Positions 43,230 through 59,676 of a stretch of 64,000 nt of DNA are shown here, in pieces. The position numbers and the translations under genes were made by a program. Source of the DNA: Candidatus Scatosoma sp. (GTDB lineage: Bacteria > Bacillota > Clostridia > Christensenellales > Borkfalkiaceae). Where the stretch lies: NCBI GenBank assembly GCA_045594025.1, contig JAZNXS010000030.1, forward strand, positions 3,230 through 67,229, given 5' to 3'. A model generated the notes under the pieces. It saw nothing but the letters and a program-made list of their open reading frames with translations, did not search any database and was not told the DNA's origin. The stretch's first letter is position 1, and each line of letters starts with the position of its first letter.

Positions 43230-44759
43230 ATGTTGAAAGCGTTATTGACAAAAATGAAAGAAGCCGCCGTATCCGTGCTCCCCGTGGCATTGATCGTGCT
43301 TTTATTAAATTTCACCCCCTTGGTGTCCTTCACCTTGGAGGAGACTATCGTTTTCGCATGCTCTTCCATAGCCCTCATTTTGGGCATCTCCCTTTTTAAC
43401 CTCGGCGCAGACATCTCTATGACGCCTATGGGAGAACAAATCGGTTCGACCTTACCGAAATCCGGGCATTTCAAAACGTTGCTTGCGGTTTGTTTTATTA
43501 TGGGTGTGTTCATCACGATTGCTGAACCCGACTTGTCCGTACTTGCTTCGCAGGTAAAAGACGCCATCGACGGAAAACTGCTTACGGTTGCCATCGGCGT
43601 CGGCGTTGGATTTTTCCTGCTTTTATCGGTGCTGAAAATCGTCTTCCGTATCAGCCTTTCCAAGTTATTGACCTTCTTTTATATGTTGTTGTTTGCGTTG
43701 GTATCCTTGGTTCTGATTAACGGAAACGGAAACTTCCTGCCCCTTGCTTTTGACTCGGGTGGGGTTACCACGGGCCCGATCACCGTGCCTTTTATCATGG
43801 CGCTTGGCGTAGGCGTCTCCGCCAGCCTTGGCGATAAGAAGGATAGAGAATCCAGTTTCGGCTTTATCGCGCTTTGCTCCATCGGCCCTATCCTTGCTGT
43901 TATGCTACTCGGCGTGTTTGCGGATAATCAACTGACTTACACCCTGCCGGATTATTCCATGGAAGCGCACTTGGGTGACTTGTCCTCAACCCTGCTCCAC
44001 ACAATGCAGGAGGTTGTGATTGCTATCGCCCCCATCGTTGCGTGCTTCTTTATTTTACAAGCGCTGTTTATGAAATTGCCGAAAAAGCGTCTTTTGCAGA
44101 TCGTCATCGGTATTTTCTACACCTTCTTCGGTTTGGTGATTTTCCTCACCGCCGTCACCGTCGGTTTTATGCCCATCGGTTTTAAATTAGGAACTCAGCT
44201 CGCGCAGACACATAACGCGCTCCTTGTAGCCATCGCATTCGTGCTTGGGTTTGCCGTCGTTCTTGCCGAACCTGCCATTCACGTTTTGAAACGTCAAGTG
44301 GAAACGGTCACAAACGGCGCCGTTAGTAAAAAATCTATGTTGATTGCGCTCTCCGTGGGCGTAGGCGCATCCATTGCGTTGTCGGTCATCCGCATCATCT
44401 TTAATTTCAGCATTCTTTATTATATGATACCCGGCTATTTCATCTCGCTTGGGTTGTCCTTCTTTGTGCCGAAATTATACACGGCAATCGCATTCGACTC
44501 CGGCGGCGTTGCAAGCGGACCCTTGACGTCGACGTTTATTCTCCCCTTTGTTATCGGGATCTGCGCGACGCTCTATCCCGCCGATCCGAATAACGTGCTC
44601 ACCCTTGCGTTTGGGCTTGTCGCCATGGTTGCCATGACGCCGCTTATCACCATTCAGGCTTTGGGCTTTAAATCCATCGCTACTCAGCACTTCAAAGAAC
44701 GCATCGCTATGCGCCGTATTCTTGACGCAGACGACGAACAGATCATTCAATTTATGTAA
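43230..44759 (+). CDS. DUF1538-like polytopic membrane protein with an internal duplication
   Basis: 509 aa with more than 10 TM helices. A duplicated signature is present: AFDSGGVTTGPITVPFIMALGVG and AFDSGGVASGPLTSTFILPFVIG. Confidence 0.65.
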   Translation: MLKALLTKMKEAAVSVLPVALIVLLLNFTPLVSFTLEETIVFACSSIALILGISLFNLGADISMTPMGEQIGSTLPKSGHFKTLLAVCFIMGVFITIAEPDLSVLASQVKDAIDGKLLTVAIGVGVGFFLLLSVLKIVFRISLSKLLTFFYMLLFALVSLVLINGNGNFLPLAFDSGGVTTGPITVPFIMALGVGVSASLGDKKDRESSFGFIALCSIGPILAVMLLGVFADNQLTYTLPDYSMEAHLGDLSSTLLHTMQEVVIAIAPIVACFFILQALFMKLPKKRLLQIVIGIFYTFFGLVIFLTAVTVGFMPIGFKLGTQLAQTHNALLVAIAFVLGFAVVLAEPAIHVLKRQVETVTNGAVSKKSMLIALSVGVGASIALSVIRIIFNFSILYYMIPGYFISLGLSFFVPKLYTAIAFDSGGVASGPLTSTFILPFVIGICATLYPADPNNVLTLAFGLVAMVAMTPLITIQALGFKSIATQHFKERIAMRRILDADDEQIIQFM

Positions 44760-44775
44760 AACGGGGGTTACAGGT

Positions 44776-45183
44776 ATGAGTTTATTGAAAAAACCTCGCA
44801 AAAACAGAAAAGCCAACCTCGTGGAAAAGGACGCACCTATGAAAGCGGACTTTAAGAAATTAAAGCTGATCGTAACCGTGGTCAACCGCAATAAAACGGA
44901 ATTCTTCCTCGACTATTTAACAACGTTTGGCGTCAACTTCCAAACGGCGGTCGCAGGACAAGGCACAGCAAAATCGGAAACGCTGTATCTGCTTGGTTTG
45001 GAAGATTCGGATAAAGGCATTATTTTTAGCGTTATCAACGAGGACAAAGCGCCTGAGGCTATGCAAGGCTTGGAAGAAAAATTCCACACCATTCGCAACG
45101 GCAAAGGGATTGCATTCACCGTCCCCTTAACCAGCGTCATCGGCGTTGCTATTTACCGTTTTTTAAGTAACAATAGGAAATAA
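44776..45183 (+). CDS. PII-like (GlnB-fold) small regulatory protein with a basic N-terminal extension
   Basis: Start at ATG 44776 with an SD GGGGG. The core KLIVTVVNRNKTEFFLDYL...GIIFSVINEDKAPEA...GIAFTVPLTSVIG looks like a beta-alpha-beta PII fold. Confidence 0.55.
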   Translation: MSLLKKPRKNRKANLVEKDAPMKADFKKLKLIVTVVNRNKTEFFLDYLTTFGVNFQTAVAGQGTAKSETLYLLGLEDSDKGIIFSVINEDKAPEAMQGLEEKFHTIRNGKGIAFTVPLTSVIGVAIYRFLSNNRK

Positions 45184-45195
45184 GGAGAAAGACTC

Positions 45196-45525
45196 ATGAA
45201 ATATAATCACGAAGCTATTTTTTGTATCGTAAACAGCGGTTACAGCGACGTCGTTATGGACGCTGCGAAAAAGCTTGGCGCGCGCGGCGGTACTGTGATC
45301 AACGCCAGAGGTACTGCAAGCAAAGACGCGGAATCCTTCTTTGGAATCACCATTCAACCGGAAAAGGAAATCGTTATGATTCTTGTCCCCTCCTCCATTA
45401 AAGACGACGTTTTACACGCTTTGTATAAGGAAGCAGGGTTGGATACGGCAGGCCAAGGGATTGCCTTTGCGCTGCCCGTAGATAGCGTAGTCGGTCTTGC
45501 CGACTCCACCTCGGAAACGAAATAA
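45196..45525 (+). CDS. PII-like (GlnB-fold) small regulatory protein
   Basis: 109 aa. AIFCIVNSGYSDVVMDAAKKLGARGGTVINARGT...EIVMILVPSSIKDDVLHAL...GIAFALPVDSVVG. Confidence 0.65.
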   Translation: MKYNHEAIFCIVNSGYSDVVMDAAKKLGARGGTVINARGTASKDAESFFGITIQPEKEIVMILVPSSIKDDVLHALYKEAGLDTAGQGIAFALPVDSVVGLADSTSETK

Positions 45526-46884: not shown

Positions 46885-46906
46885 GCGCTTAGTATGGGCA
46901 AACCGC

Positions 46907-46936
46907 ATAAAAAAACGCACCCTTCCGGGTGCGTTT
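46907..46936 (-). terminator. Rho-independent terminator closing the TIR operon
   Basis: The minus strand reads AACGCACCC ggaa GGGTGCGTT followed by TTTTTTT. Confidence 0.8.
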
Positions 46937-46949
46937 TGATAAAGTTCGC

Positions 46950-49034
46950 TTATTTGGATCCTGCGTTCGACGGCTCGTTCGCCTCTCGTTTAATAACGGA
47001 ATAATCAATCCTATCTAACGCTTCGCACATGCCGTCGATGACCATATAATCATAACGGTATATCGATGCCAGCGTATTCATATCCGTAGAGCCAACCTTC
47101 TTTTCGCCCTTTTCAGCCGCTTCTTGTAACACTTTTTGCTTATGCTTAAGCAGCTTGTCAAGCCCAGCATACGTCGTCAGGCAGGCATGGCGGAATTTTG
47201 CTCCGTTCTTGTGCTGTAACACGTCCTTACCCTTTTCGTTACGCGTCCAAATAAATTCCTTAAACGGTAAGGGCTTATATCCGGATAACAAGTAGTAGGC
47301 ATTCCAACGGGAATGTTCGATAAACGCCAACACGTTAGCCGCCTGCGTCCCAAAGAAGTAGTTGTAATCCTCCCCTTTGCTATCCATAAAGACGCCGGGG
47401 CAGTGCTTTTCGATTTCCGCTTTCGTAAGTCCTTCCCCTTTACCCTTCTTTAATTCTAAGCCCATAAGATGCAGCTTGAAATAGAGGTTCAGCGCCGCGT
47501 TAATGTTAGAATATTGCTCCACCACGGGCAGCTTTTGCCAGTCGCGTAACTGCGCCCATTTATCTTTCGTGTAATCGTTATATAAGTCGTTTACGTTTTG
47601 AGAGAGCACCATTAAGTCATTGTTAACAATGTTTTCATGCAAGTAACACTCTGCATTCTCCCCGAAATAAACAATGTTTTTCTCGTCTTTGTTCAATAAA
47701 CGACTTTCCTTTCCCTTCGAGCGAACGAAAATCTTGTAATTTTGCTCGTCCTCCAAGTATTTTTTAAGATCGTGCGCGAAATCAGCGTCTTGATAATCGT
47801 CGGATATGGACACGATGAAATACGTATACGTATCTTTGTTGACCAGCGCGCGAATCTGTTTACGCGTCTCCGCAGAATGCGCGTCCATCGGTAAGCTTTC
47901 CTTTAAATCGCAAATCTTTTCCGCTGCGGGTAAATCGGAATTTTTAAAAATCTCGTCGTACTCGTTAATCAGCTTGATAAAATGCTCGTTATTGAAGCGT
48001 TCGCTGTTGTTTTCAAAGGTATAATAATGCACGGGCGCGGCATATAACTGATCCCCTTTTTGCTTTGCAAATTGGAAATTCGTCGCCATCAGTTTGAACA
48101 GCTCATAATTGACTTTTCCAAACCCCAAAAAGACAACGTTGACTTCCTTTTCATCTTTCAACGTTAAGTTCTCGTTGAAAAAGCTACGGGGCATGTACTT
48201 GGTGATGGGGTGTTCCATGATAAAACGGCGCGCCATCAGCTCGTAACGGCAGAACGGCAATACGAACGTATTTGCTTGCTCGGAAACGTCCGAAAGATAC
48301 TTTTCACGCACCATTCCCAGCTCATTTACATTGGCTTCCAAATGTAAAAATAATCGCTTATCCCTCTTTTCCTTCAGTTTCTCAAAACACGATAAAATGG
48401 AAAAGTAGGAATAGCTTGTATCGCGGAATACAATCAAATGATACTCTGCGCCCTTTAAACACTTAGAAACGGTTTTTTCGTTCAATGGCGCTTTATGTAC
48501 GGCATGTTGCTGTTTAATCAAGCTCAAATACGTCTCTTTGTCGATTTCTTCCACCCAAAGCACAGCGCCTTTATGGGCTTCTAAGTATTTCAAAGAGCTG
48601 GGCGACAGTCCGATTACGATGTCGCCGCCCATCATGAAGCTTTTGCGTTTCTTTAAGCCGTTTGTGATTGCCACGCCAAAGAAAACGAAAACGCCGAAGA
48701 TAACGGTGATAAACGAGAGAATGCACGCCCCGATCATCGCTGCATGAAACCAAGGATTCGCTTGACTTAAAGCAAGCACCAACGAATCATTTAATTCCAT
48801 GGATACCATGGATAACGTTTCATGAATGAGTAAAAATAACGTATAGAACGTAATCTTCTCGCCGTTATAAACGGTCGCCATCGTATACAGCGCGTACACC
48901 ACAACAAAGGCGGGCAGCGCATAAATCAAGCTTTTTTTGTCGATCACCGCCCTCTTTTTGATAATCAAATACCCCAAAAACCCGATTAACGCTATTTCTA
49001 TACATAAAAACAATATGCTTAATTCCGTATACAT
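46950..49034 (-). CDS. Polytopic membrane protein with Rossmann-like modules and a C-terminal RyR-like segment (third gene of the TIR operon)
   Basis: 694-aa ORF with an SD GGAGAA. Four to five N-terminal hydrophobic helices span aa ~5-125. Rossmann-like strand-loop starts are DIVIGLSPSS and VNVVFLGFGKVNYEL. The C-terminal IEHSRWNAYYLLSGY...FRHACLTTYAGLDKL resembles the bacterial RyR-domain pattern. Confidence 0.6.
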   Translation of the reverse strand: MYTELSILFLCIEIALIGFLGYLIIKKRAVIDKKSLIYALPAFVVVYALYTMATVYNGEKITFYTLFLLIHETLSMVSMELNDSLVLALSQANPWFHAAMIGACILSFITVIFGVFVFFGVAITNGLKKRKSFMMGGDIVIGLSPSSLKYLEAHKGAVLWVEEIDKETYLSLIKQQHAVHKAPLNEKTVSKCLKGAEYHLIVFRDTSYSYFSILSCFEKLKEKRDKRLFLHLEANVNELGMVREKYLSDVSEQANTFVLPFCRYELMARRFIMEHPITKYMPRSFFNENLTLKDEKEVNVVFLGFGKVNYELFKLMATNFQFAKQKGDQLYAAPVHYYTFENNSERFNNEHFIKLINEYDEIFKNSDLPAAEKICDLKESLPMDAHSAETRKQIRALVNKDTYTYFIVSISDDYQDADFAHDLKKYLEDEQNYKIFVRSKGKESRLLNKDEKNIVYFGENAECYLHENIVNNDLMVLSQNVNDLYNDYTKDKWAQLRDWQKLPVVEQYSNINAALNLYFKLHLMGLELKKGKGEGLTKAEIEKHCPGVFMDSKGEDYNYFFGTQAANVLAFIEHSRWNAYYLLSGYKPLPFKEFIWTRNEKGKDVLQHKNGAKFRHACLTTYAGLDKLLKHKQKVLQEAAEKGEKKVGSTDMNTLASIYRYDYMVIDGMCEALDRIDYSVIKREANEPSNAGSK

Positions 49035-49085
49035 CTCTTTCTCCGCGGCCGTCCATAATCCTATACGGTTATGACGCCGATTCTT

Positions 49086-52031
49086 TTATAATTGATCGAT
49101 GATATGTTTAAACTCAAAATTATTCTCTATCATTCTTTCAAACAGCTCGATACCGATTTGCGTCTTCATTTCGTTTTTCTTGCTCTTCCACTGAGACGCT
49201 TCTTCCTGTGTGAACGTGTATTTTGCGGAAGCATAATACTCGAAGAAGGTATATACCGTCTGCAAAACATTGACGTCGTGCGCAATTTTCGCATTGATAT
49301 TGTTGCTGTTATAGTATCCCGTCCAAACGTTATAATAATACGTGAGGTTGGCAATATTCGGATACGTGCCTTTTAAGAAGAGCTTTCTCATAAAATGATT
49401 TTGCTCGGCAGGATCCATATCCTCAGAGACCATTTTCGCCCCCTGGCTTCTGTTTTGAACCTGCGCCATGTCATGAATCAACAGCATATCCAAAATTTCT
49501 TTTTTGTTATAGCCTTCCGCCGCCATTTCTTCCGGCAGGAAGAGCATCGCCAAGAGCCAAGAGCTAAACATGTGCTCTGAAACGCTTTCCGGTACGTCTA
49601 CCGTATCAATCCATTGCGTCCGTTTAATCTGCCTTAAAACGTTGCACTGATTGTACAGCATCGGGCCGATGTCAAGCCCTCCGTCAGCAAGGAAACGTAA
49701 GAAGTCCTCTTTGACGCTCTCGAAATAATAAAGAATTTTAGAGGATACGATATTGTGCGGCTTTTGTTGATACGTTTCCAAATAACGCACTGCATTTTTG
49801 ACGTAGGTTTGAATGTCAAAGTTAGGCTTTATCACCTTACTTTGAATACGGGTTTGCAATAAGGTAAGCAACGTAACTAGATTGTTCTCTACAAACTTAT
49901 CCCTATTGTTCTCCAACGACGCTTCCACTCTGGCCTCCAACGCCTTGATTGCGCCCTCGCCAAAATTCGGGTTCGTGTCCAGATAGTAGGTGTTATGCGC
50001 CCCCATTTGGTACTGTTCGCTGTAATATTCCACCGTTGCGCCACGGTTTACGGCGTTTGCAATATCGTTGGTGATGACAATACACAAGTATTCGTCCATC
50101 ATGTTGGCTTGGCCGTGGAATAACATACCCGTACAAACCGCGCGGAACAATAAATGCTTATCTAAATTATCCTGCGTGTTCTTGTTGTTGGTTTTCACCG
50201 CAGACTTTAACTTTGTAAACTCCCCTGTTAAGAAGGAAAGGGCATAGTTGACCATCTCCTTGCTGTAATTGATTCTACCAAGCCAAAAGGCTGCGTTCGC
50301 TTTTTGACGAACGTCAAACACCTCATATTTATCGTCGATAAAGGCGATGAATTTCTCCTGCAATTCATAGTTATCTTGTAACATTGCCACTACAAACTGG
50401 TTTGCCGTCGCCGTCAGCATAACTTTGAAGAAATCATAGTTATTCAACGTCTTATAATTTTCGATTTGATAAACGAAATAATACGCAATCAAATACCCTA
50501 AGTAAGTATGATGTTTGTTGGGGAAAGACCACACTTTGCCATCGTAAGCATTATCGATACAGCCGTCACCGCCGCTAAATAAATATTCAAACAGCGTTTT
50601 GGATACCTGCAATAGTCTTTCTTCTTCCAAATATTCCGTCAAAACGAACTTTTCATACATGTCGCTGAGGCAAATATCCGTATCGTAGCTGGTGGCAATT
50701 TCCCTTGCAATGAGCCTGATTAAGAATATATCCACAGAGGGATATTTTAACTTCTTTAACAGGTCGTACACCGTCTCGCAAGCCGCGCTTTCCCCATACA
50801 TTTTTAACACGCTGCGAATCACTTTCGTGATTTTTTGTTTTTGTTCGATAGGGATAGAATGGAATAATAATAAATATCCGCCGCGCATTTCCCCCGCGAT
50901 AGGAATTACCTTCTTTAAGCGTATGCGGTTTTGAATCAAACCCGTATCGATCGCCACTGCTCTATTGTAGCGTTCGAAGGGCTTAAACAGCATATAAATG
51001 ATTTTTTCGGGACTCAGACGGGTAACAACGTACTCTCTTACCCCTTCCAGCAAAAGAACGGGTTTTACTTCTTTGTTTTGCTTAACGTACTGGAAAAATT
51101 CCGCCGTGTCCTCCGAAATCAATTCCTGCATTTCGGATTCCGCATCGTTATAATCAAACTTTTCATAATACCCGATGGACAGGTATATCGGTAAAACGTC
51201 GCTTTCGTTTTTCTCGAAGCGATCCAGCATTTTAAAAAACGCCAGCTGTAATAACATGTTTTTCGCGCTGCCGGGCAACCCCTGCACACGGACGATATTA
51301 TGCTCTTTTGCCGATAAAGCGTCTACCAATAAACGGACGTAATCCGTATCTTGCGAAAGCAGTTCATCCTTGTTATAACCACTCACCGTTTCCGAGAATA
51401 ACACGTTGGCTTCTTTTACAAAGCTATTATACGACTCCTCGCCGTCTACGCGGTCGAATAAGCTGTACGCAAATTTCGAGGAAAGCATCTTCAGTTTCCA
51501 TACGATTGCCTTTCTCGTTAGATTATCTTCTATAACCGCCTTTGCCTTGACGGAAGCCTCTTCTGTCTTTTTTATAATGGGTCTGGGAATGCTCCGCAGC
51601 GTATCTGCGCGCGGAATTTCTTTGCCCTTTGCACCCAGAATGCTCATAATGGTCGAGCGCAGTTTTTCCAGCCCTTCTGCAAAATCGTGATACGCGTCAA
51701 TCCAGTGCTTTCTTCCTAAGTAATACAAAAAGCCGTTGGAAAATTTCACGTTTTCGATTTTGAACGCGATGATGGGTTTTTCGCAATCGAACGCGATTGC
51801 CAGCTCGTTGCTGACGTGGTTAGATTCGTTGGTGTCTTCGGAAGCAACCAACACGAACGCATCGCAATTTTTAATTCCTTCCACAATTTCTGTAGGATAA
51901 TCCTTTCCGGGAGAAATACTGTACGGCGCCATCCAACACCCGATTCCGCTTCTTTGCAGAAATTGATATACGGCGTCTGCGCTTTCTATGTTGTTAGAAG
52001 TATAGCTGATAAAAATCGAATTTGCGTTCAT
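49086..52031 (-). CDS. TIR domain - degenerate P-loop (STAND/NACHT-like) - HD phosphohydrolase fusion protein
   Basis: The start is ATG 52031, with an SD AGGAG 9 nt upstream. GTG 52064 is the long-ORF alternative. TIR-like N-terminus: SIFISY, GCWMAP, CDAFVLVASEDTNESNHVSNELAIA. Central region: VRVQGLPGSAKN and KPVLLLEGVRE. C-terminal HD motif: ESVSEHMFSSWLLA...LLIHDMAQV. Confidence 0.7.
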   Translation of the reverse strand: MNANSIFISYTSNNIESADAVYQFLQRSGIGCWMAPYSISPGKDYPTEIVEGIKNCDAFVLVASEDTNESNHVSNELAIAFDCEKPIIAFKIENVKFSNGFLYYLGRKHWIDAYHDFAEGLEKLRSTIMSILGAKGKEIPRADTLRSIPRPIIKKTEEASVKAKAVIEDNLTRKAIVWKLKMLSSKFAYSLFDRVDGEESYNSFVKEANVLFSETVSGYNKDELLSQDTDYVRLLVDALSAKEHNIVRVQGLPGSAKNMLLQLAFFKMLDRFEKNESDVLPIYLSIGYYEKFDYNDAESEMQELISEDTAEFFQYVKQNKEVKPVLLLEGVREYVVTRLSPEKIIYMLFKPFERYNRAVAIDTGLIQNRIRLKKVIPIAGEMRGGYLLLFHSIPIEQKQKITKVIRSVLKMYGESAACETVYDLLKKLKYPSVDIFLIRLIAREIATSYDTDICLSDMYEKFVLTEYLEEERLLQVSKTLFEYLFSGGDGCIDNAYDGKVWSFPNKHHTYLGYLIAYYFVYQIENYKTLNNYDFFKVMLTATANQFVVAMLQDNYELQEKFIAFIDDKYEVFDVRQKANAAFWLGRINYSKEMVNYALSFLTGEFTKLKSAVKTNNKNTQDNLDKHLLFRAVCTGMLFHGQANMMDEYLCIVITNDIANAVNRGATVEYYSEQYQMGAHNTYYLDTNPNFGEGAIKALEARVEASLENNRDKFVENNLVTLLTLLQTRIQSKVIKPNFDIQTYVKNAVRYLETYQQKPHNIVSSKILYYFESVKEDFLRFLADGGLDIGPMLYNQCNVLRQIKRTQWIDTVDVPESVSEHMFSSWLLAMLFLPEEMAAEGYNKKEILDMLLIHDMAQVQNRSQGAKMVSEDMDPAEQNHFMRKLFLKGTYPNIANLTYYYNVWTGYYNSNNINAKIAHDVNVLQTVYTFFEYYASAKYTFTQEEASQWKSKKNEMKTQIGIELFERMIENNFEFKHIIDQL

Positions 52032-52067
52032 CTCATTTTTCTCCTGTGTAACCTGTCTTGTCACGCT

Positions 52068-53375
52068 TTAAAACCAAACGGTATACATAACGTACCCGGC
52101 GTTAAAAATAAACTCTTCGCCGAAAAAAGCCTCTTCCAAATCGTCGTAATATTCATCCACCCAAGCCAAAACTTCTTTTGCCGTTTCGTCGTTGGGATCT
52201 TCTTTCAGCATCAAGCCGAAATCGTTGGGGATAAAAGCGAACCAAGACTCGAATAACAAGCGCTTCGCTTCATAATCCATACCCGTCGAGTTGATCCCGC
52301 AACGCTCTAAGCGGATATCCTTCGCACCAAGCTTTTTCATGTAGCTGTAAATTTGTCTGCCCGATTTACGGAATCCGCCCAGCTTATTAAACTTGTAGAA
52401 AGACTGAAATTCTTTAAACAGATTGTTTTCATCAGGGTAAGCGAACACCAACGTGTCATCCACGTCGCGAATGAACGCTACTGCATTCGGGTTCATATAT
52501 TTCTTGATTTTTTTCAAAACTTTGAACGGAGATTCCAAATCCAAAATTGTCATAGTAAGATTGAGGAAATCAAAGCCCTTAATACCGCGCTCTTGCATGA
52601 CCCTCGGTAATACTTCGTCAATTTTATCCTTGGTTAAATCCATCAGATAAAACCGCATGTTGTCATGCTCTTCACAGAGTTTATTTCCCTCTTCAATCAT
52701 CTGTTGATCATAGGAGAAATATACGGCTTTGCCCACTTCCTTACGATCGAATCTTCTTATGGTAGAATCTGCGCTAAGCACATTAAAATCCAAAACGGCT
52801 ACGTTCTCGCGGCCCAAAAGCAGCTTATCGTAATACGGCTTTTCATAGCTATACAACAGCTCTTCTTCGTTGTGGATTCTTTCACATTCTACTGCGTCTT
52901 CGGGCATGTAGTATTGATTAACCTTTCTTTCCACTTCCACCTTTTCATTCTTCTCGTAGCGCTCTGTTTTCTCAATACCTAAAATAGGCACCAGCTGTTC
53001 GTAAAGGTGGTAAATACTCTGTTCCAAAGGCTCGCTTACGGCGTCGATCCAATGCAGACGCTTTACGTAATATTCCATGGCTTTGGAAAGAATTCCTTCG
53101 TCCACTTTGAACGGGATAATGGTGATTTCACCGTTTAAAATACGCTTGTACGCCATTTCCACTTCATTTAATACGTGCGGAGATTCCGACGAGTTGTGAT
53201 TGAGAATCAAAACGAAAACTTTGCATTTTTCAATCGCTTCCACGATAGACGTGGCGTAGTCGCCGTAAACGTCCCGAGGCGCATACCAACAACGCACCCC
53301 TCTCGTCTCTAATACAGAACAGATATTATCCGCGATCGATTTCGATTCGTGCTCGTAACTGATGAAAACGTCCAT
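52068..53375 (-). CDS. TIR domain - methyltransferase-fold-like fusion protein
   Basis: 435 aa with an SD AGGGAGA. TIR-like aa 1-135: VFISYEH, VRCWYAPRD, CKVFVLILNHNSSESPHVLNEVEMA. The C-terminal half resembles a class I methyltransferase fold with a degenerate SAM loop: VAVLDFNVLSADS and FDFLNLTMTILDLESPFKVLKKIKKYMNPNAVAFI. Confidence 0.65.
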   Translation of the reverse strand: MDVFISYEHESKSIADNICSVLETRGVRCWYAPRDVYGDYATSIVEAIEKCKVFVLILNHNSSESPHVLNEVEMAYKRILNGEITIIPFKVDEGILSKAMEYYVKRLHWIDAVSEPLEQSIYHLYEQLVPILGIEKTERYEKNEKVEVERKVNQYYMPEDAVECERIHNEEELLYSYEKPYYDKLLLGRENVAVLDFNVLSADSTIRRFDRKEVGKAVYFSYDQQMIEEGNKLCEEHDNMRFYLMDLTKDKIDEVLPRVMQERGIKGFDFLNLTMTILDLESPFKVLKKIKKYMNPNAVAFIRDVDDTLVFAYPDENNLFKEFQSFYKFNKLGGFRKSGRQIYSYMKKLGAKDIRLERCGINSTGMDYEAKRLLFESWFAFIPNDFGLMLKEDPNDETAKEVLAWVDEYYDDLEEAFFGEEFIFNAGYVMYTVWF

Positions 53376-53415: not shown

Positions 53416-54039
53416 TTATGCTTTCGTTCCGCGGCGTATCATGCGGTAGCAAGGAACGTCCGTAAAACCTAAATATTCGGTGGTAATTTCAAAACCCACC
53501 GCTTCGTACGTTTTCAACGCCGCCACGTTATCCTTCACCGATTCGAGGTGGTAGGTCTTGTGAGGCGCGGCTTTTACGTATTCCGCCATCATTTTCTTTC
53601 CAATTCCCAAACCGCGATAACGACTATCTACGCAGACGTTAGCAATATAGACCCCATCGGGCTCGTCCTCAAACAGCTTGTAGTATTCGTTAAACGTTTT
53701 CGTGAACCGATCGCCAACCGCTTCGTTTGCATCGAGAAAACAACGCACCATAGCGCCCAAATCAACGGAGATTGGCGTTTCTTGCGCCACGATAATTCCC
53801 ACAATATTTTCACCGAGCGTTGCAACCGTGATATTGCGATAATTGTAGATCGTATCACTGTGAATCATGTTAATGATTACGGGGATTCCCCTTTCAATAT
53901 CGTTATCGTAAAGATATGGGAACACGTAATCGTCCGTATAATAAATCAGCCGCGCCACTTGCATAAGATCGTCGCTAAGCGATAGCGGCCGCAAAATCAA
54001 ATCTTGCTCCATATTCTCTCTCCTTGGCTTATTTTCCAT
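53416..54039 (-). CDS. GNAT-family N-acetyltransferase
   Basis: Acetyl-CoA motif A YRGLGIGKKMM. 207 aa. Confidence 0.8.
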   Translation of the reverse strand: MENKPRRENMEQDLILRPLSLSDDLMQVARLIYYTDDYVFPYLYDNDIERGIPVIINMIHSDTIYNYRNITVATLGENIVGIIVAQETPISVDLGAMVRCFLDANEAVGDRFTKTFNEYYKLFEDEPDGVYIANVCVDSRYRGLGIGKKMMAEYVKAAPHKTYHLESVKDNVAALKTYEAVGFEITTEYLGFTDVPCYRMIRRGTKA

Positions 54040-54535
54040 ACACTTCCCGATAAATTTCTTTTACTGCTTTTTCCGCGTTCTCTAAAACGCACGGACAACT
54101 CATTAAAATCAAGCGCACCTCGTTGCCGTTCTCTCTGTACGAAGGCTGCATATACGGATATTCGTTCGCTACAAAACCCTGTCTTTGATAAAAAGCAAAG
54201 CGACGCACCGCCATAGGCTCTTGAGGAGGTTCTACCTCCAAGACGATTTGTCCGTAGCGTTGTTTAACAACCCCCAAAGCCGTCCCACCAAGCCCCTTAT
54301 TACGGTGCTCGGCGTAGATGACAAAATGCTCCACAAATGCAAACCCGTCAAATGCCCAAATCGCAATAAAGCCCACGTTTTCGCCATCTTTTTGAAGATG
54401 GTATAAATGATATTTCTCGTGGTCGTAAACCTTTTCGGCTTGCGGAAAGTCTCTTATTTCGTCTAAACAGAAATTTTGCTGCATTTGCACGTAAATTTGT
54501 GCCAAATCCGCTTTTTTCGACAAAACAAGTTGCAT
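54029..54535 (-). CDS. GNAT-family N-acetyltransferase
   Basis: Motif A HRNKGLGGTAL. 168 aa. It overlaps the downstream GNAT gene by 11 nt. Confidence 0.8.
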   Translation of the reverse strand: MQLVLSKKADLAQIYVQMQQNFCLDEIRDFPQAEKVYDHEKYHLYHLQKDGENVGFIAIWAFDGFAFVEHFVIYAEHRNKGLGGTALGVVKQRYGQIVLEVEPPQEPMAVRRFAFYQRQGFVANEYPYMQPSYRENGNEVRLILMSCPCVLENAEKAVKEIYREVYGK

Positions 54536-54659
54536 ACTACTCTCCTTTTTTACATCTTAGCCCTATGCGCGAAGCGCATTATACGTATATTTTAACTGAA
54601 ATGACCGAAAAAGTCAATAGTTTCATGATTATAAGTATAGTTTCACGGAAAATCTAATG

Positions 54660-54688
54660 TAAAAAGCACCCACAAAGGGTGCTTTTTG
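54660..54688 (-). terminator. Bidirectional rho-independent terminator after the ASCH gene
   Basis: AAAAAGCACCC acaa AGGGTGCTTTTT. Confidence 0.75.
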
Positions 54689-55133: not shown

Positions 55134-55481
55134 TTATTTAGATTCCTTTTTCAGCGTTTTACAACTAGCAATTAGCATTCGTCTAATTCGACCGCAAAGA
55201 TTGCGATAGGTTTTAAAAGTTTCTTCGTCTATGGCGTTAGTGTTAAATAACAGTTTGAGCCAACCTTCGGTTTCGTTACATTCTTTGAGTGCTATTTCAA
55301 ATTTCGATATCATATCTGATTTGCTTTGCCCGTAATTTGCTTCGCGTATATTTGCATAAATACTGCTTGAACTTTTCCGTATTTGGAATATAGTGTTTGA
55401 AGAAGCTTTTATATTCTGACAAAGCAATTCGATTTCAGACGCAAGTTGCTCGGAGTATATCAACAAGTAATTCTTTGGCAT
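55134..55481 (-). CDS. Four-helix-bundle protein (23S rRNA intervening-sequence protein family-like)
   Basis: 115 aa. IRKSSSSIYANIREANYGQSKSDMISKFEIALKECNETEGWLKLL matches the family pattern by eye. Confidence 0.65.
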   Translation of the reverse strand: MPKNYLLIYSEQLASEIELLCQNIKASSNTIFQIRKSSSSIYANIREANYGQSKSDMISKFEIALKECNETEGWLKLLFNTNAIDEETFKTYRNLCGRIRRMLIASCKTLKKESK

Positions 55482-55552
55482 AATATCACCTCTTTATTTC
55501 ATTATACCATAACTACATAAATAAAACAAGAGCTTTTCCCATTTCTGCGTCC

Positions 55553-55736
55553 TCATCACGCCATAGGCGTGTATATCATCAAGGCGCAAGCCTTGTATAT
55601 CACCAACACAAAGTGTTGTATATCATCAAGGCGCAGATAGATACACGCTGATGCGTGATGATATACAGCTCCAAAGGAGCTGATGATATCCACCACACTT
55701 CGTGCGGTGATGATATACCAAGTCTGCGACTTGGAT
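55553..55736. repeat. Hairpin-ladder repeat, GTATATCATCA family
   Basis: GTATATCA(T/C)CA occurs at 55571, 55595 and 55618. The inverted TGATGATAT(A/C)C occurs at 55656, 55681 and 55708. Seven perfect mini-hairpins lie between them (CACGCCataGGCGTG, AAGGCgcaaGCCTT, AACACaaaGTGTT, CACGCtgatGCGTG, AGCTCCaaaGGAGCT, CACCaCACttcGTGcGGTG, CCAAGTCtgcGACTTGG). Confidence 0.75.
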
Positions 55737-55779
55737 AAAAAAATACTGCAGAAAATGTGTCCTTTTCTGCAGTATTTTT
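55733..55779 (-). terminator. Rho-independent terminator downstream of tRNA-Gly
   Basis: 15-bp stem AAATACTGCAGAAAA / TTTTCTGCAGTATTT flanked by A/T runs on both sides. Confidence 0.8.
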
Positions 55780-55854
55780 TGGAGCAGGTGACGAGAGTCG
55801 AACTCGCCGGGAACAGCTTGGGAAGCTGCCGCCATACCGCTAGGCGACACCTGC
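55780..55854 (-). tRNA. tRNA-Gly (anticodon CCC), CCA encoded
   Basis: The reverse complement is GCAGGTGTCGCCTAGCGGTATGGCGGCAGCTTCCCAAGCTGTTCCCGGCGAGTTCGACTCTCGTCACCTGCTCCA, which I folded into a cloverleaf by hand. Features: 7-bp acceptor stem, anticodon loop TTCCCAA, T-loop TTCGACT. Confidence 0.9.
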
Positions 55855-55968
55855 ATTTCAATCTTTACTTTCTTATTATATCCCTTTTAAAAGAAATTGT
55901 CAATCCTTTTTTGCTCTTCCTAAAAAATTTCTTTCATAATATGAAAAACGGGCGCTTTCGCCCGTCAA

Positions 55969-56349
55969 TCACTTCTTTAAACACGCCTTGCACGTGCCAT
56001 AAAATTCTACACTGTAACCACTCACTTGAAACCCATGATTCGCCGTTGCGATCAGTCCCTCCGTAGGAATCCCCGTCGCCATTACATCCGCTACTCTTCC
56101 GCACGTCAAACAACGTGCATGATAATGCGGCGCTACGTTATAATCATAACGTACCTCTTCCCCTGCCGTGCGCAATTCTAATGCCCTGCCGTTCGCCGCA
56201 AAACCTCCCAAAACTCGGAACACTGGTGCACGTGAAACAGTAGGGAAGTTTTCGTGCACATAGCCGTACACCTCCGTGGCTGTCGGGTGATCCAACGTTT
56301 TCAACGCATCATATATAATCTGCTTTTGCTTCGTTTGTCTTTCCTGCAT
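55969..56349 (-). CDS. Fur-family transcriptional regulator (Fur/PerR/Zur type not resolved)
   Basis: 126 aa. N-terminal winged helix, HYHARCLTCG and CKAC metal-site motifs. Confidence 0.8.
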   Translation of the reverse strand: MQERQTKQKQIIYDALKTLDHPTATEVYGYVHENFPTVSRAPVFRVLGGFAANGRALELRTAGEEVRYDYNVAPHYHARCLTCGRVADVMATGIPTEGLIATANHGFQVSGYSVEFYGTCKACLKK

Positions 56350-56474
56350 ACCACTTCCTCCTTTATTAAGATTGAGTACTGATTATAGTATAGCATAGAA
56401 TTTGTCGCTCGTCAAGAGTTTTCGATCAATTTTTTACAGTAAAGAAAAAGGCTCTTTTAACAGAGCCTTTTAGA

Positions 56475-58316
56475 TTATCTTACGTTGTTCACGTTGATGA
56501 TTGCAATTTCTTCACCCGTACCTGCATCTAAGAAAATATAATAATTTTCTTCCCCGTACGAACAAAGAAATTCATACGCCGCGCGTTCCCCTCTTGCGGT
56601 ATCTACCACAGCGAGACGGGAAGCCTCCACCGAGAGTTTTTCGCTGAGCTTTTTATAGGCGGTTTCCATGTTGATTTTTACATTCAACTCGTCCCTGCCC
56701 CTATGATTTTTTAAATATTTCGCAGCATCCATACCTGAAACAACCCCTCTGCTACGACATACTTTTACGTGTACCGTATCCGGATAATACACCACGCCAT
56801 CCTCTTCATAGACAAAGGTGAAATCCACCGTAGAGCCGTTCGCCTTATATCTTGCCACCGTCAAATCTTCATAACCAAGCGTCTTTAAAAATTCTTGCGC
56901 GATTCGTTCTGCGTTATCCATATCAAACTTCTCCGCAGAACATTCTTCATAGTAGTCAAAACGGATTAAATCACCGCTGTTTCTATCTACTTCGGCAAAC
57001 AACATCGAGCCTTTCTCATCAAACCCCTGCACGTTATAAGCCGAATACTTCTGGGTTACCGTTTCGCCAACACATTGAAATTCTTGAATATTATACTTAC
57101 TGAAATAGGTTGCGCAAAGCTCCTCCGCTTTTGCCGTATCCACGGCGGAACCTTTGTTTTCCGCGCCGTTGGATGACTTTGGTTGCATACCTGCCCCCTT
57201 CATTTCTTCCATTTTATTCTCAATAGCAGCCCTATTTTCCGCCAACGTCATATTCTCTAAATTATTCATAACGTCAGACAGCATTCCTTTGCCATCCTTC
57301 ATATAATCCATCCAATCCTGATCCGTCATTTTCTCTGTCAACTTATCCAACTCTGTACGAATAGAGTGGTTGGTTTTATACAAGCTTTCCAACGTTTCCA
57401 TGTCCTGTTTAGATAACGTTCCGCCGTTGCGAAGCTTTGAAAGCATTCTTTCGCTCTCTGCTGCCGTACGATTCAAAAATTCTGTGATGTTGCGTTCTTT
57501 TTCCATCGAAATCGGCAACTTTTCAAGATCCGCTTCCGCAAGACGAGCTTGCACCAAAAGATCGGTTAAAATACGGCTTTGCTGCATCGAAGAAGAGGAA
57601 ACGCGGATTCTATCCAAATCGTCGTCTACGTGTTCCATGATGCCCGTCAACTCGTACATGGTACCCCTCTGTGCAGTCATCATACCCTCTTTCATCGCTT
57701 TCATTTCCATAGCGCCAACGGTAACCGTTGTCGCTAAAGCCAAGGTTGTTACGCCAAGCGCCACAACTGCGGCAATCCAACCGCCATATCCTTTTTCGCG
57801 TTTTTTATTTCCATCCGCGTTGTTTTTGCGGTTTCGGTTTGCTCTGCGTTTTGCTCTTTCCTGATTTCTGTTCGCTTTGGCGTGCGCTCTTTCACGAATC
57901 TTTGCTTCCTTTTCCGCGGCGCGTTTTTCTGCAAGGGCTTTCTTTTCGGCTAAACGCTTTTCAATCACCGCCTTTCTTTCTGCAATTCGCTTTTCACGCG
58001 CGGCTTGGCGTTCTGCCTTTTTCTTGGCTTGCGCTTCTTTGCGCGCCGCCTGCTCTTTTTTCTTTTTTAATGCGCGTTCTACCCGTGCTTTTGCGGCTTC
58101 ACTTTCCTTATCCGCTTTGCTTTCCACACTTTTTTTCACCGTCTGTTTAACAGAGTCGCCAAGCGCGGAATCCCCTTTCGCGCTTTCTTTTTTTACAGTT
58201 TTAACCGCAGTTTTTGTTTTGCCGTTTTGTTCCTTTTTTAATTCCTTTTCAACCGTCTCCACCTTTTCCGCGCCCGAGGACACGTTGGTTGCGATTTCCG
58301 TTTCTTTCTTTTTCAT
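56475..58316 (-). CDS. ypeB: Germination protein YpeB-like with an extended K/E/A-rich N-terminus
   Basis: Start at ATG 58316 with an SD GGGGGAA. A TM segment (GWIAAVVALGVTTLALATTVTV) and PepSY-like C-terminal repeats are present. It lies directly downstream of sleB. Confidence 0.75.
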   Translation of the reverse strand: MKKKETEIATNVSSGAEKVETVEKELKKEQNGKTKTAVKTVKKESAKGDSALGDSVKQTVKKSVESKADKESEAAKARVERALKKKKEQAARKEAQAKKKAERQAAREKRIAERKAVIEKRLAEKKALAEKRAAEKEAKIRERAHAKANRNQERAKRRANRNRKNNADGNKKREKGYGGWIAAVVALGVTTLALATTVTVGAMEMKAMKEGMMTAQRGTMYELTGIMEHVDDDLDRIRVSSSSMQQSRILTDLLVQARLAEADLEKLPISMEKERNITEFLNRTAAESERMLSKLRNGGTLSKQDMETLESLYKTNHSIRTELDKLTEKMTDQDWMDYMKDGKGMLSDVMNNLENMTLAENRAAIENKMEEMKGAGMQPKSSNGAENKGSAVDTAKAEELCATYFSKYNIQEFQCVGETVTQKYSAYNVQGFDEKGSMLFAEVDRNSGDLIRFDYYEECSAEKFDMDNAERIAQEFLKTLGYEDLTVARYKANGSTVDFTFVYEEDGVVYYPDTVHVKVCRSRGVVSGMDAAKYLKNHRGRDELNVKINMETAYKKLSEKLSVEASRLAVVDTARGERAAYEFLCSYGEENYYIFLDAGTGEEIAIINVNNVR

Positions 58317-58341
58317 AATCTTTCCCCCTAAAAAATACCCC

Positions 58342-59100
58342 TTAAATAGCAAACACGTGTTTACCGATCACCGTGACCGTTTGTCGATCGAAAATCCAAG
58401 AACTAGTCGCTACCGCAGGATTGTAATAATAGAGCGCGCCGCCCGAAGGATCCCAACCGTTAATAGCATCCCTTGCGGCATTCATTGCCGTTTCGTTCGG
58501 CGTAAGGTTAATCTGTCCGTCGTCCACCGCCGTAAACGCGCCCTTTTGATATACGACACCTGCGACGGTGTTCGGAAATTGATTGCTACGAATGCGGTTC
58601 ATAATCACCGCGCCAATCGCCACCTGACCAGTGTACGGCTCGCCCCTGCCCTCCGCGTATATTGTTTTGGCAAGCAGATACACGTCCGAGCTTGTAAATC
58701 CGCCCGTATTACTTGTATTATTCTTCCCCACGAGCACTTGGTACGAGTTGTTCATCCCTAGCGCCTTATACGTTGACGCGCCAACAACGCCGTCCGCCGT
58801 TAAACCATTCTTTTTTTGAAACTTGATAACCGCCTCGCGAGTTCCTGCGCCGAAAACGCCATCCACGCTACCGTTATAATATCCCCACGTCTTCAACCGA
58901 CGCTGTACCTCTTTAACCTCGCCACCTTTTGCGCCTTGACGCAATACAGCAGCTGCAAGTACTTCGTTTTCCCTCGACTCCGTTACCACAGCCGATTCCG
59001 CATGGCTATTACAAATTTCCGCAATACCCGTAACCAGGGTCGGGGCCATGATTGCGCAAGCAAACGATACCAGCGCCAATTTCTTGATTGACTTCTTCAT
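58342..59100 (-). CDS. sleB: Spore cortex-lytic enzyme SleB
   Basis: Signal peptide. PG_binding_1-like segment (GEVKEVQRRLKTWGYYNGSVDGVFGAGTREAVIKFQKKNGLTADGVVG). Hydrolase_2-like C-terminus (AEGRGEPYTGQVAIGAVIMNRI). Confidence 0.88.
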   Translation of the reverse strand: MKKSIKKLALVSFACAIMAPTLVTGIAEICNSHAESAVVTESRENEVLAAAVLRQGAKGGEVKEVQRRLKTWGYYNGSVDGVFGAGTREAVIKFQKKNGLTADGVVGASTYKALGMNNSYQVLVGKNNTSNTGGFTSSDVYLLAKTIYAEGRGEPYTGQVAIGAVIMNRIRSNQFPNTVAGVVYQKGAFTAVDDGQINLTPNETAMNAARDAINGWDPSGGALYYYNPAVATSSWIFDRQTVTVIGKHVFAI

Positions 59101-59109
59101 TTTTTCCTC

Positions 59110-59676
59110 CTATTTATCTTTTTGAAACTCTTGAATAATTTCCAAAATTTTACTTTTATAAATCACGTTTGTATCCGTCGCGGCAAAACAAAGCGGTGGA
59201 TACACCACACACCACCAGTTGTCCCCCGCACCGCGCCCTAGATTGATGATAAGCGCGGAATACTCCCCGGCAGGCAACGTATAGTCACCATATACCCTCG
59301 TTGGAAAACTTTCCTTCTGCAAGGTTGCCGTCGCGCCATAGGGAAATCCCTCTTTTTGTAGCGTTTTCGTGGCAACCCTCTCCACCTGTTTTAAATGCCG
59401 AGCAATCCCCTCCATTGCAGCTTCTTTTGTAGTATACTCTGCGACAAGCGGCGTTAAATATTCCACAACGCATTCTTTGACGCGATATTTTACGGCTTGC
59501 GCGGCATCCTCGTTGGAATCCGCGCGAATATGAATCCGCAAATAATCGTTGTTTGCGCCCACATTACGAGAATTCGTCGCAGACATGGTGCTTCCATTTC
59601 GCGAAACTCCCCCAAAAGAAACTGCCGTTAAACTTATTATGATTGACAAAAGAAAAATTATGCAATTCTTTTTCAT
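59110..59676 (-). CDS. spoIIR: Stage II sporulation protein R
   Basis: Signal/TM N-terminus, the YLRIHIRADSNEDAAQAVKYRVKECV motif typical of SpoIIR, and WWCVVYPPLCF. Confidence 0.85.
   Translation of the reverse strand: MKKNCIIFLLSIIISLTAVSFGGVSRNGSTMSATNSRNVGANNDYLRIHIRADSNEDAAQAVKYRVKECVVEYLTPLVAEYTTKEAAMEGIARHLKQVERVATKTLQKEGFPYGATATLQKESFPTRVYGDYTLPAGEYSALIINLGRGAGDNWWCVVYPPLCFAATDTNVIYKSKILEIIQEFQKDK

Follow-up and report, generated by a model that had tools for sequence, protein, structure and literature searches.

The locus considered here raises the question of what a large membrane protein does at the end of an operon that also encodes two TIR proteins, and through which of its parts it would receive a signal. 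The protein, P0001, is encoded at 46950..49034 on the minus strand of a 64,000-nucleotide (nt) stretch of Candidatus Scatosoma sp. DNA (contig JAZNXS010000030.1, forward-strand positions 3,230 to 67,229), referred to below as the window. A reading made from the letters of the window (the sequence-only reading) had taken P0001 for a putative abortive-infection effector that receives a TIR-derived NAD metabolite, and had named no module as the sensor of the signal. We now propose that P0001 is, on balance, probably a signal-activated membrane effector of a Thoeris-like TIR system that is gated through a RyR sensor. The effector interpretation finds support, at the level of sequence analysis, in the TIR operon, in a TIR-linked accessory family and in a conserved RyR pocket, and from these we infer the ligand of P0001, the direction of signaling, its pore activity and its role in defense.

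P0001 is co-oriented and apparently co-transcribed with the two TIR genes. Its open reading frame starts with ATG, encodes 694 amino acids (aa) and has exactly the limits that the sequence-only reading had given it. As read from the sequence, a GGAG ribosome-binding site (49041..49044, minus strand) lies 6 nt 5' of the ATG and an intrinsic terminator (46909..46937, minus strand) stands immediately 3' of the stop codon; the terminator is strong, with a 9-bp GC-rich stem and a GGAA loop (AAACGCACCC-GGAA-GGGTGCGTTT) followed by T7. The order of the five genes, all on the same strand, is GNAT, GNAT, TIR-methyltransferase-like, TIR-STAND-HD and P0001, and the spacing from P0001 outward consists of gaps of 51, 3, and 40 nt and then an 11-nt overlap between the two GNAT genes. 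The nearest partner is a 992-aa protein (49086..52064) with TIR_2 (Pfam, 8e-20), a STAND-like core and HD_3 (Pfam, 2e-14), followed by a 435-aa protein in which Pfam finds TIR_2 and a methyltransferase-like domain (52068..53375), by a 207-aa GNAT acetyltransferase identified by Pfam (53416..54039), and by a 168-aa GNAT (54029..54535) that is the putative first gene. Promoter-like sites (54589-54663) precede this first GNAT gene and no convincing terminator was found within the five-gene block, the only one found being that 3' of P0001, which makes P0001 the final cistron of a putative operon of five genes. It is because P0001 ends an operon with two TIR genes that we consider it probably a signal-activated effector. 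The block occupies a stretch of low G+C content (0.39-0.43 versus 0.46-0.50) next to a tRNA-Gly gene.

P0001 has no significant match in Pfam (even at E<=10), NCBIfam, PADLOC or, by phmmer, among the sequences of the PDB, and its architecture is taken from an AlphaFold2 model built on 42 homologues, with a predicted local distance difference test score (pLDDT) of 86 and a predicted template-modeling score (pTM) of 0.81. The model consists of five N-terminal helices, two beta-alpha-beta Rossmann domains and a helical C-terminal domain. When the whole model was compared with the PDB by Foldseek, the matches were, in order, GsuK (E 7.6e-6), the TrkA ring (2.4e-4), MthK (6e-3), and Slo1, with a probability of 1.0 for the first three and with the tandem Rossmann fold arranged as in RCK gating rings; all four are tandem-RCK ion-channel regulators. 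As modeled, P0001 begins with a membrane module of three transmembrane (TM) helices arranged much like a pore loop, continues with two Rossmann domains that resemble RCK/TrkA, and ends in a tandem RyR domain resembling Repeat12 (R12) of ryanodine receptors.

The membrane module (residues 1-135; 48630..49034, minus strand) is delimited by hydropathy, the model and conservation, and runs from TM1 and TM2 through short helices at 63-77 and 83-92 to a long TM3 that ends at the near-invariant N125. Four to five N-terminal TM helices had been expected from the sequence, and that expectation stands only in part: the model does contain five helices (2-26, 33-56, 63-77, 83-92, and 94-135), but hydropathy supports only three strongly hydrophobic segments (1-27, 35-55, and 94-129), so that the module counts three TM helices and two shorter, possibly re-entrant ones rather than a clean set of four or five. 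Its predicted topology is pore-loop-like, a cytoplasmic KKR loop being followed by TM2, the short helices and then TM3, which leads into the RCK domains. The first of these (RCK1, residues 136-292; 48159..48629, minus strand) is assigned by the Foldseek matches to GsuK, TrkA, and MthK; its glycine loop is degenerate (D138-IVIG142-L-S144, that is, GxSxxS) and it has no sequence-level similarity to TrkA_N (profile 0.4%). The second (RCK2, residues 293-470; 47625..48158, minus strand) is assigned both by Foldseek and by hhalign, which aligns it with a KtrA/TrkA profile (Prob 61%, P 8e-5) with the motifs in register: G304-x-G306-x-x-N309 aligns with the GxGxxG loop, and the last part of beta-2 brings E341 opposite the ribose-binding Asp, the residue being Asp in 60 of the 66 relatives at 20-40% identity that make up our conservation set. 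Likeness to TrkA at the level of sequence is thus detectable in RCK2 only and not in RCK1. The two strand-glycine-loop starts that had been picked out by eye, DIVIGLSPSS at 138 and VVFLGFGKVNYEL at 300, are present as quoted, and in the model both sit where a strand passes through a loop into a helix (strand 138-141 and helix 145-153; strand 297-303 and helix 307-319).

The remainder of the protein suggests where a signal could be sensed. It comprises a degenerate RyR repeat A (residues 471-560; 47355..47624, minus strand), recognized by hhalign and in a model of the C-terminal part, and a RyR repeat B (residues 561-685; 46980..47354, minus strand), recognized by hhalign, Foldseek and conservation. 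Repeat B has the residues E573-H574-x-R576-W577, K609, H616-A-C-L-T-T-Y, and Y-D662-Y as well as an inserted helix at 622-642. The separate C-terminal model (residues 465-694) has a pLDDT of 89, and the top 21 PDB matches that Foldseek returned for it, each with a weak E-value, are all RyR Repeat12 domains or whole ryanodine receptors, with R12 of RyR3 at the head of the list and structures with ADP/AMP-PCP and dantrolene bound among them; in a profile search against the PDB the RyR1 chimera 6uhi ranks first, with a weak E of 0.34. A reference profile was built from bona fide PF02026 domains collected in 301 genomes of the same order, and against it hhalign aligns the C-terminal profile of the family over residues ~565-685 (Prob 98%, E 2.6e-13, E-values here referring to single pairwise comparisons) and repeat A over residues 473-530 (59%, P 9e-5), with 0.2% for the RCK region as a control. 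The RyR-like pattern that the sequence-only reading had claimed, HSRW at 574 and HACLTTY at 616, is therefore there and goes beyond chance.

The same assignment is reached through intermediate sequences. A broad profile hidden Markov model (HMM) of the family matches proteins of 550-561 aa in their TM, RCK and repeat A parts (E 1e-15 to 1e-24), and in repeat B of these proteins Pfam recognizes RyR with a score that exceeds the gathering threshold. Four relatives (L073, L076, L077, and L079) are matched by the family HMM from the TM region through repeat A (E 1e-10 to 1e-24), the match of L079 covering only hmm 51-282 and a short stretch of repeat B, and all four have a Pfam or PF02026-search RyR match of 33-37 bits at the position of repeat B. 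Because of the hhalign match and this chain of transitive homology via Pfam-recognized relatives, we conclude that P0001 carries what sequence comparison identifies as a diverged tandem RyR domain that lies below Pfam detection; the genome from which the window comes has no PF02026 match. Of the Rossmann and RyR similarity that had been suggested, the Pfam HMMs for TrkA_N and RyR find none, but the structure searches, with weak values in the case of RyR, and the profile-profile searches are positive.

The ligand that this domain might bind is suggested by phage proteins, in which RyR domains bind or cleave TIR-made 2'/3' cyclic ADP-ribose (cADPR), as described in two 2026 preprints (PMC13232231; 10.64898/2026.06.04.730250). 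The contacts with the ligand are H75, W78, H100, and D117 in the phage RyR protein RyDEP (PMC13232231) and H129/W132, K147/H154, and K170/D171 in RyR Tad (10.64898/2026.06.04.730250), and hhalign maps these positions onto H574, W577, K609/H616, and D662 of P0001. Few positions anywhere in P0001 are as conserved as the pocket residues of repeat B. E573 is conserved in all 66 relatives, R576, W577, and D662 each in 64, H616 in 63, and H574 in 55, with Lys in nine. The equivalent positions in repeat A are occupied by N482 and Y485, in place of the H..W pair, and by N510, in the S509-N510 that stands in place of the Asp.

A pocket of this kind could also serve to end a signal. P0001 could be a membrane-anchored terminator or buffer whose repeat B cleaves or sequesters cADPR isomers and would thereby give TIR signaling a threshold or turn it off, guarding the host against self-activation, and H574 and D662 are indeed the equivalents of the catalytic dyad (His/Asp) of the RyDEP glycosidase (PMC13232231), while small RyDEP-like RyR proteins of 92-103 aa stand directly beside TIR genes in related genomes (e.g., G044:C33). 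However, a protein of 694 aa with a membrane module and two RCK domains far exceeds what a hydrolase or sponge needs, and H574 is replaced by Lys in 9 of the 66 relatives while W577, H616, and D662 are kept, which argues that binding rather than catalysis is the conserved feature. Moreover, none of the eight RyDEP homologs tested cleaved the signals, whereas six of the eight bound them stably (PMC13232231). We regard a role as terminator as quite unlikely.

Homologues of P0001 are plentiful and all unannotated. They form 89 clusters at 90% identity from metagenome-assembled genomes of gut Clostridia, and a profile search at E<=1e-3 gave 1,417 clusters (50% identity), 410 of them with E<=1e-30; most of the best 150 clusters among the matches listed are full-length (650-750 aa). 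A tblastn search of phage and plasmid collections with P0001 and a Foldseek search of predicted viral structures with the C-terminal model gave no match and no significant match, respectively. Only 30 of the 301 genomes of the order and 3 of the 61 of the genus carry the family, which is therefore accessory. A Pfam-annotated TIR gene lies beside the family gene on five of six looked-up contigs (homologues of 25-66% identity), and the TIR proteins on these five are of the GDPD plus TIR_2, CAP12-PCTIR, short TIR_2, TIR-MORN, and TIR-methyltransferase types. Altogether, adjacent TIR proteins have at least five architectures (TIR-methyltransferase-like, ~990-aa TIR, CAP12-PCTIR TIR, TIR-MORN, and GDPD plus TIR). 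The partners in the window recur as well: ~980-1000-aa orthologues of the 992-aa protein flank family members at L016 and L025, and TIR proteins of ~430-460 aa directly flank them at L009, L013, L014, L026, L027, L036, and L038, the L009 copy being annotated by Pfam as TIR_2 plus methyltransferase.

The family is also statistically tied to TIR genes. At 14 of 45 species-representative loci a TIR gene lies no more than 6 kb away, in most cases as the immediate neighbor in the same orientation, and among 135 scanned neighbor proteins within 1.3 kb at the 45 loci TIR_2 is the commonest Pfam family (11), with RyR joint second (5). Small unannotated proteins just 3' of some family members (L039, L035, and L042) have no Pfam match that would mark them as cryptic TIR proteins. 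Across genomes, counted without regard to phylogeny or general defense-island load, TIR_2 is found in 27 of 30 carriers versus 69 of 271 non-carriers (odds ratio 26, Fisher p 4e-12). Loci with an adjacent TIR gene are spread over the family tree, supported branches forcing at least nine changes, and near-identical pairs differ only in the presence of the TIR gene; the clade of the window itself is entirely TIR-linked.

The same survey also contains what would be expected of a very different protein, a nucleotide-gated ion channel or transporter regulator with a housekeeping or stress function, whose link to TIR genes would come only from their shared occurrence in variable regions. Two thirds of the loci have no TIR gene nearby and many have housekeeping neighbors, the fold is that of K+ channel regulators, and four loci as well as the window have genes for DUF1538 and P-II proteins close by. 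The genome, however, already has a canonical tandem TrkA, on another contig, and the family is absent from 58 of the 61 genomes of the genus and from 271 of the 301 of the order. With TIR_2 as the single commonest neighbor domain, the genome-level odds ratio given above, and the conservation of RyR pocket residues for cADPR isomers, a housekeeping role appears unlikely; the homologues prove to be accessory genes with TIR as their top neighbor rather than TIR-independent genes of housekeeping contexts.

Several observations nevertheless weigh against P0001 being an effector gated through a RyR sensor. Among the 45 species loci, 31 have no TIR gene within 6 kb, and many neighbors at the TIR-less loci are housekeeping genes (IF3, DnaA, LeuRS, and serine dehydratase); the association between carriage and TIR_2 ignores phylogeny and defense-island load. 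The Foldseek values behind the 21 ryanodine receptor matches are weak (E 0.03-0.7, TM-score 0.3-0.4), and the Pfam HMMs for RyR and TrkA_N match neither P0001 nor 41 and 65 other aligned family members. Since the RyDEP dyad is also conserved in the P0001 family, sensing of the signal and its cleavage are not separable by sequence. The membrane module has neither a Pfam Ion_trans_2 (PF07885) match nor a selectivity filter of the TVGYG type, and hhalign aligns it with the Ion_trans_2 profile co-linearly but at only 10%; the module is not assignable to the K+ channel pore family. Finally, the 992-aa TIR-STAND-HD protein could be a self-contained sensor and effector.

A further possibility is that the direction of signaling is reversed, such that P0001 is the upstream sensor which, through its RCK and RyR domains, responds to a membrane or ionic disturbance or to a change in NAD+, ADP, or ATP and then activates TIR proteins that are NAD+-depleting effectors. 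The classical ligands of RCK domains are ATP, ADP, NAD+, and ions, as the GsuK and TrkA matches illustrate, R12 domains of animal ryanodine receptors bind ATP/ADP (according to PDB titles), and many bacterial TIR proteins are NADase effectors (Yirmiya et al. 2025, 10.64898/2025.12.03.692087). The TIR partners, however, have sensor-like domains of their own (STAND, methyltransferase-like, and MORN), and TIR proteins of unrelated architecture are interchangeable beside members of the family, which a diffusible signal fits better than specific protein contact. Family genes are, in addition, often far from any TIR gene while the genome has one. We consider an upstream sensor improbable and retain P0001 as the receiver of a TIR-made signal.

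Based on the operon, the conserved pocket and the model, we put forward the following hypothetical mechanism for P0001 as an effector. Upon phage infection one or both TIR proteins would convert NAD+ to an ADP-ribose-derived signal, probably a cADPR isomer, which would bind in the cytoplasmic pocket of repeat B (H574, W577, K609/H616, and D662), possibly together with the binding of a nucleotide at the GxGxxN...D/E site of RCK2. The RCK ring would then shift its conformation, as it does in GsuK, MthK, and TrkA, and this movement would open or reorganize the membrane module. The membrane would depolarize or leak ions, and growth would halt before the phage cycle is completed.

A pore in the membrane module gains in plausibility from relatives with a canonical channel. 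Three proteins (L078:46-1731 in G195:C34, L081:160-1698 in G057:C7, and L084:103-1686 in G106:C145) have an N-terminal Ion_trans_2 domain (TTVGYGD) and a C-terminal Pfam RyR domain and are matched by the family HMM (E 1e-10 to 1e-12). In G195:C34 the stop codon of the channel gene is separated by 9 nt from the start of a TIR_2 gene, and in G106 a TIR gene lies 2 kb upstream of it (L084). These three and the four TM-RCK-RyR relatives named above (L073, L076, L077, and L079) share homology with P0001 either in RCK2 and the RyR repeats or along the full length, and some of the seven are, like P0001, directly beside TIR genes; L078, L081, and L084 have the canonical K+ filter and all seven a Pfam-recognized RyR, whereas the P0001 subfamily has moved beyond HMM detection in both respects. 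Because these relatives carry a K+ pore, a channel function of the P0001 membrane module is plausible.

The association of RyR with TIR extends beyond the family. In the same order 39 of 42 genomes with a Pfam RyR match have TIR_2, versus 57 of 259 without one (p 4e-19), and of the 35 RyR hits that exceed the cut-off, at least 16 have a TIR_2 hit no more than 10 kb away; examples are G044:C33:23181-23848, G109:C5:3751-7736, and G284:C6:756470-767055. A second family of RyR proteins directly adjoins P0001 homologues at 8 of the 45 loci. Its long form (750-790 aa; L020:3559-5931, L023, L030, L033, and L037) has an RyR domain that is significant by both Pfam and PDB searches and an N-terminus that, read by eye only, appears HD-like (H..HD motifs). 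Of its short form (~590 aa; L016:227-1999, L031:4176-5954, L042, and L050), the two members scanned, L016 and L031, both carry a DUF4231/SLATT-type membrane domain. The RyR protein of L020 was considered as a paralogue of P0001 and rejected by BLASTP, its similarity being confined to the RyR repeats. Some soluble proteins (335-494 aa; L076:1747-3018, L077:160-1461, L055:1778-2785, L056:1769-3253, and L057:1778-2962) align with the family HMM in its RCK2 and RyR part alone and directly adjoin membrane-bound family members or small RyR proteins. RyR is thus fused to several effector-like modules, including SLATT/DUF4231, as expected of a sensor domain, and the pattern at these loci is the one known for SLOG, SAVED, and CARF, in which one sensor domain is combined with many output modules.

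How does this locus relate to known TIR immunity? The survey by Yirmiya et al. (2025, 10.64898/2025.12.03.692087) covers Thoeris types I-XI and 29 putative configurations, and the modules of the eleven types are SLOG, Macro, caspase-like, DUF2270, DUF6650, SLATT, TPR-hydrolase, small channel, and HIT. Its membrane effectors are ThsC of type II (TM plus Macro), ThsF of type V (DUF2270), ThsG of type VI (DUF6650 with or without TM), ThsH of type VII (SLATT), and ThsK of type X (ion channel). The P0001 locus resembles such systems in having a TIR gene beside a membrane protein with a cytoplasmic nucleotide-binding module, in accessory, island-borne genes, and in interchangeable TIR partners. It differs from them in the two TIR and two GNAT genes of the operon and in the lack of a PADLOC match to P0001. 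The accessible text and supplementary tables of the preprint make no mention of RyR, RCK, or TrkA in effectors (10.64898/2025.12.03.692087), and P0001 belongs to no described effector family (ThsA and ThsC-ThsL) insofar as the source describes them, ThsK being compared directly and the other ten by description only. The type X locus, retrieved through its TIR sequence on a contig of Vibrio sp. JCM 19052 (L135:3369-3995), has two ThsB_TIR genes flanking a 208-aa pore-only membrane protein for which no Pfam family is recorded and whose motif LTYGGF resembles a K+ filter. That this effector is of the P0001 kind was considered and rejected, the 208-aa pore-only protein being unrelated by hhalign (0.1%). 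The locus is best read as a Thoeris-like system distinct from types I-XI as these are set out in the accessible part of the survey.

The phage proteins RyDEP, a glycosidase or sponge, and RyR Tad, a sponge, share with P0001, as predicted for its C-terminal part, the RyR/R12 fold (PMC13232231; 10.64898/2026.06.04.730250) and a pocket made of H-x-x-W, a His before "CL..Y", and an Asp. They are, however, small, soluble, homodimeric counter-defense proteins, whereas P0001 is host-encoded and membrane-bound and joins a tandem of an intact and a degenerate repeat to RCK domains. With the RCK-gated channels and regulators GsuK (NAD+/ADP/Ca2+), MthK, TrkA/KtrA, and Slo1, P0001 has in common a membrane module followed by tandem RCK domains and, in RCK2, the putative GxGxxN...D/E nucleotide motif; it differs from them in having no TVGYG filter, no HMM match to Ion_trans_2 or TrkA_N and a degenerate RCK1 loop, and in its extra N-terminal TM helix and RyR tail. 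That tail, as predicted, resembles Repeat12 of animal ryanodine receptors, whose tandem repeats form one globular nucleotide- and drug-binding domain on an ion channel, but no more than 10-15% of the sequence is identical, repeat A is degenerate, repeat B has an inserted helix, and the channel part is unrelated to the six-TM pore of the animal receptor.

The other genes around P0001 deserve description in their own right. The two GNAT proteins are conserved companions. Homologues of the 207-aa GNAT, a recurring partner of the family, adjoin family members at six other loci (L013, L014, L022, L044, L049, and L121), those of the 168-aa GNAT occur in L013 and L014, and a distant member of the family carries a fused GNAT domain. 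In L022, L044, and L121 the GNAT follows an unannotated protein of ~755-770 aa without Pfam match, forming a recurrent three-gene module; in L049 a shorter homologue (195 aa) takes the place of this protein, and the L022 copy has no PDB match either. On the other side of P0001, an open reading frame for an M20 peptidase listed from GTG 46920 overlaps the P0001 terminator (window 46906-46920), and its true start is more likely ATG 46908 or a later Met. Further on, the window has a DUF1538 membrane protein and two P-II-like genes at 43230-45525; in four other loci (L011, L045, L046, and L048) a DUF1538 protein is encoded no more than ~2 kb from family members, with small unannotated open reading frames of 108-150 aa beside the DUF1538 gene, and this recurrence may be plain synteny or a functional neighborhood. 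A 61%-identical homologue, P0021 (L002:8001-18043), stands beside the same conserved flank as that at window 55134-59676, consisting of a 23S-rRNA-IVS protein, FUR, YpeB, cell-wall hydrolase, and SpoIIR, and is paired with a different TIR, of the CAP12-PCTIR type, on the opposite strand. That P0021 shares the flank and has a different TIR suggests that the chromosome has a variable hotspot here.

Thoeris-type immunity is defined by the effector that reads the TIR signal, and in the literature searched, some of it accessible in part, no host effector with an RyR domain is described, neither in the two preprints on phage RyR proteins (PMC13232231; 10.64898/2026.06.04.730250) nor in any report returned by our other searches. 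The 2026 phage work left the role of cellular RyR domains open, and the P0001 family offers an answer. If this is true, the host uses as its receptor the same RyR fold that phage proteins use against the signal. Current defense finders and Pfam entirely miss the ~1,400 sequence clusters (at 50% identity) that come with this family, which also provides a small, tractable system in which to ask if an R12 domain can gate a membrane pore on a cADPR isomer, a matter unresolved for animal ryanodine receptors. We suggest, tentatively and as a possibility that we think somewhat doubtful, that P0001 and its K+-pore relatives are bacterial channels gated via a Repeat12 domain by TIR-made cyclic ADP-ribose and that RyR is a general sensor of TIR immunity. 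RyR would then be a sensor module comparable to SLOG, Macro, SAVED, and CARF, and these proteins would be the prokaryotic counterpart, possibly the evolutionary source, of the long-debated axis from cADPR to the ryanodine receptor in animals.

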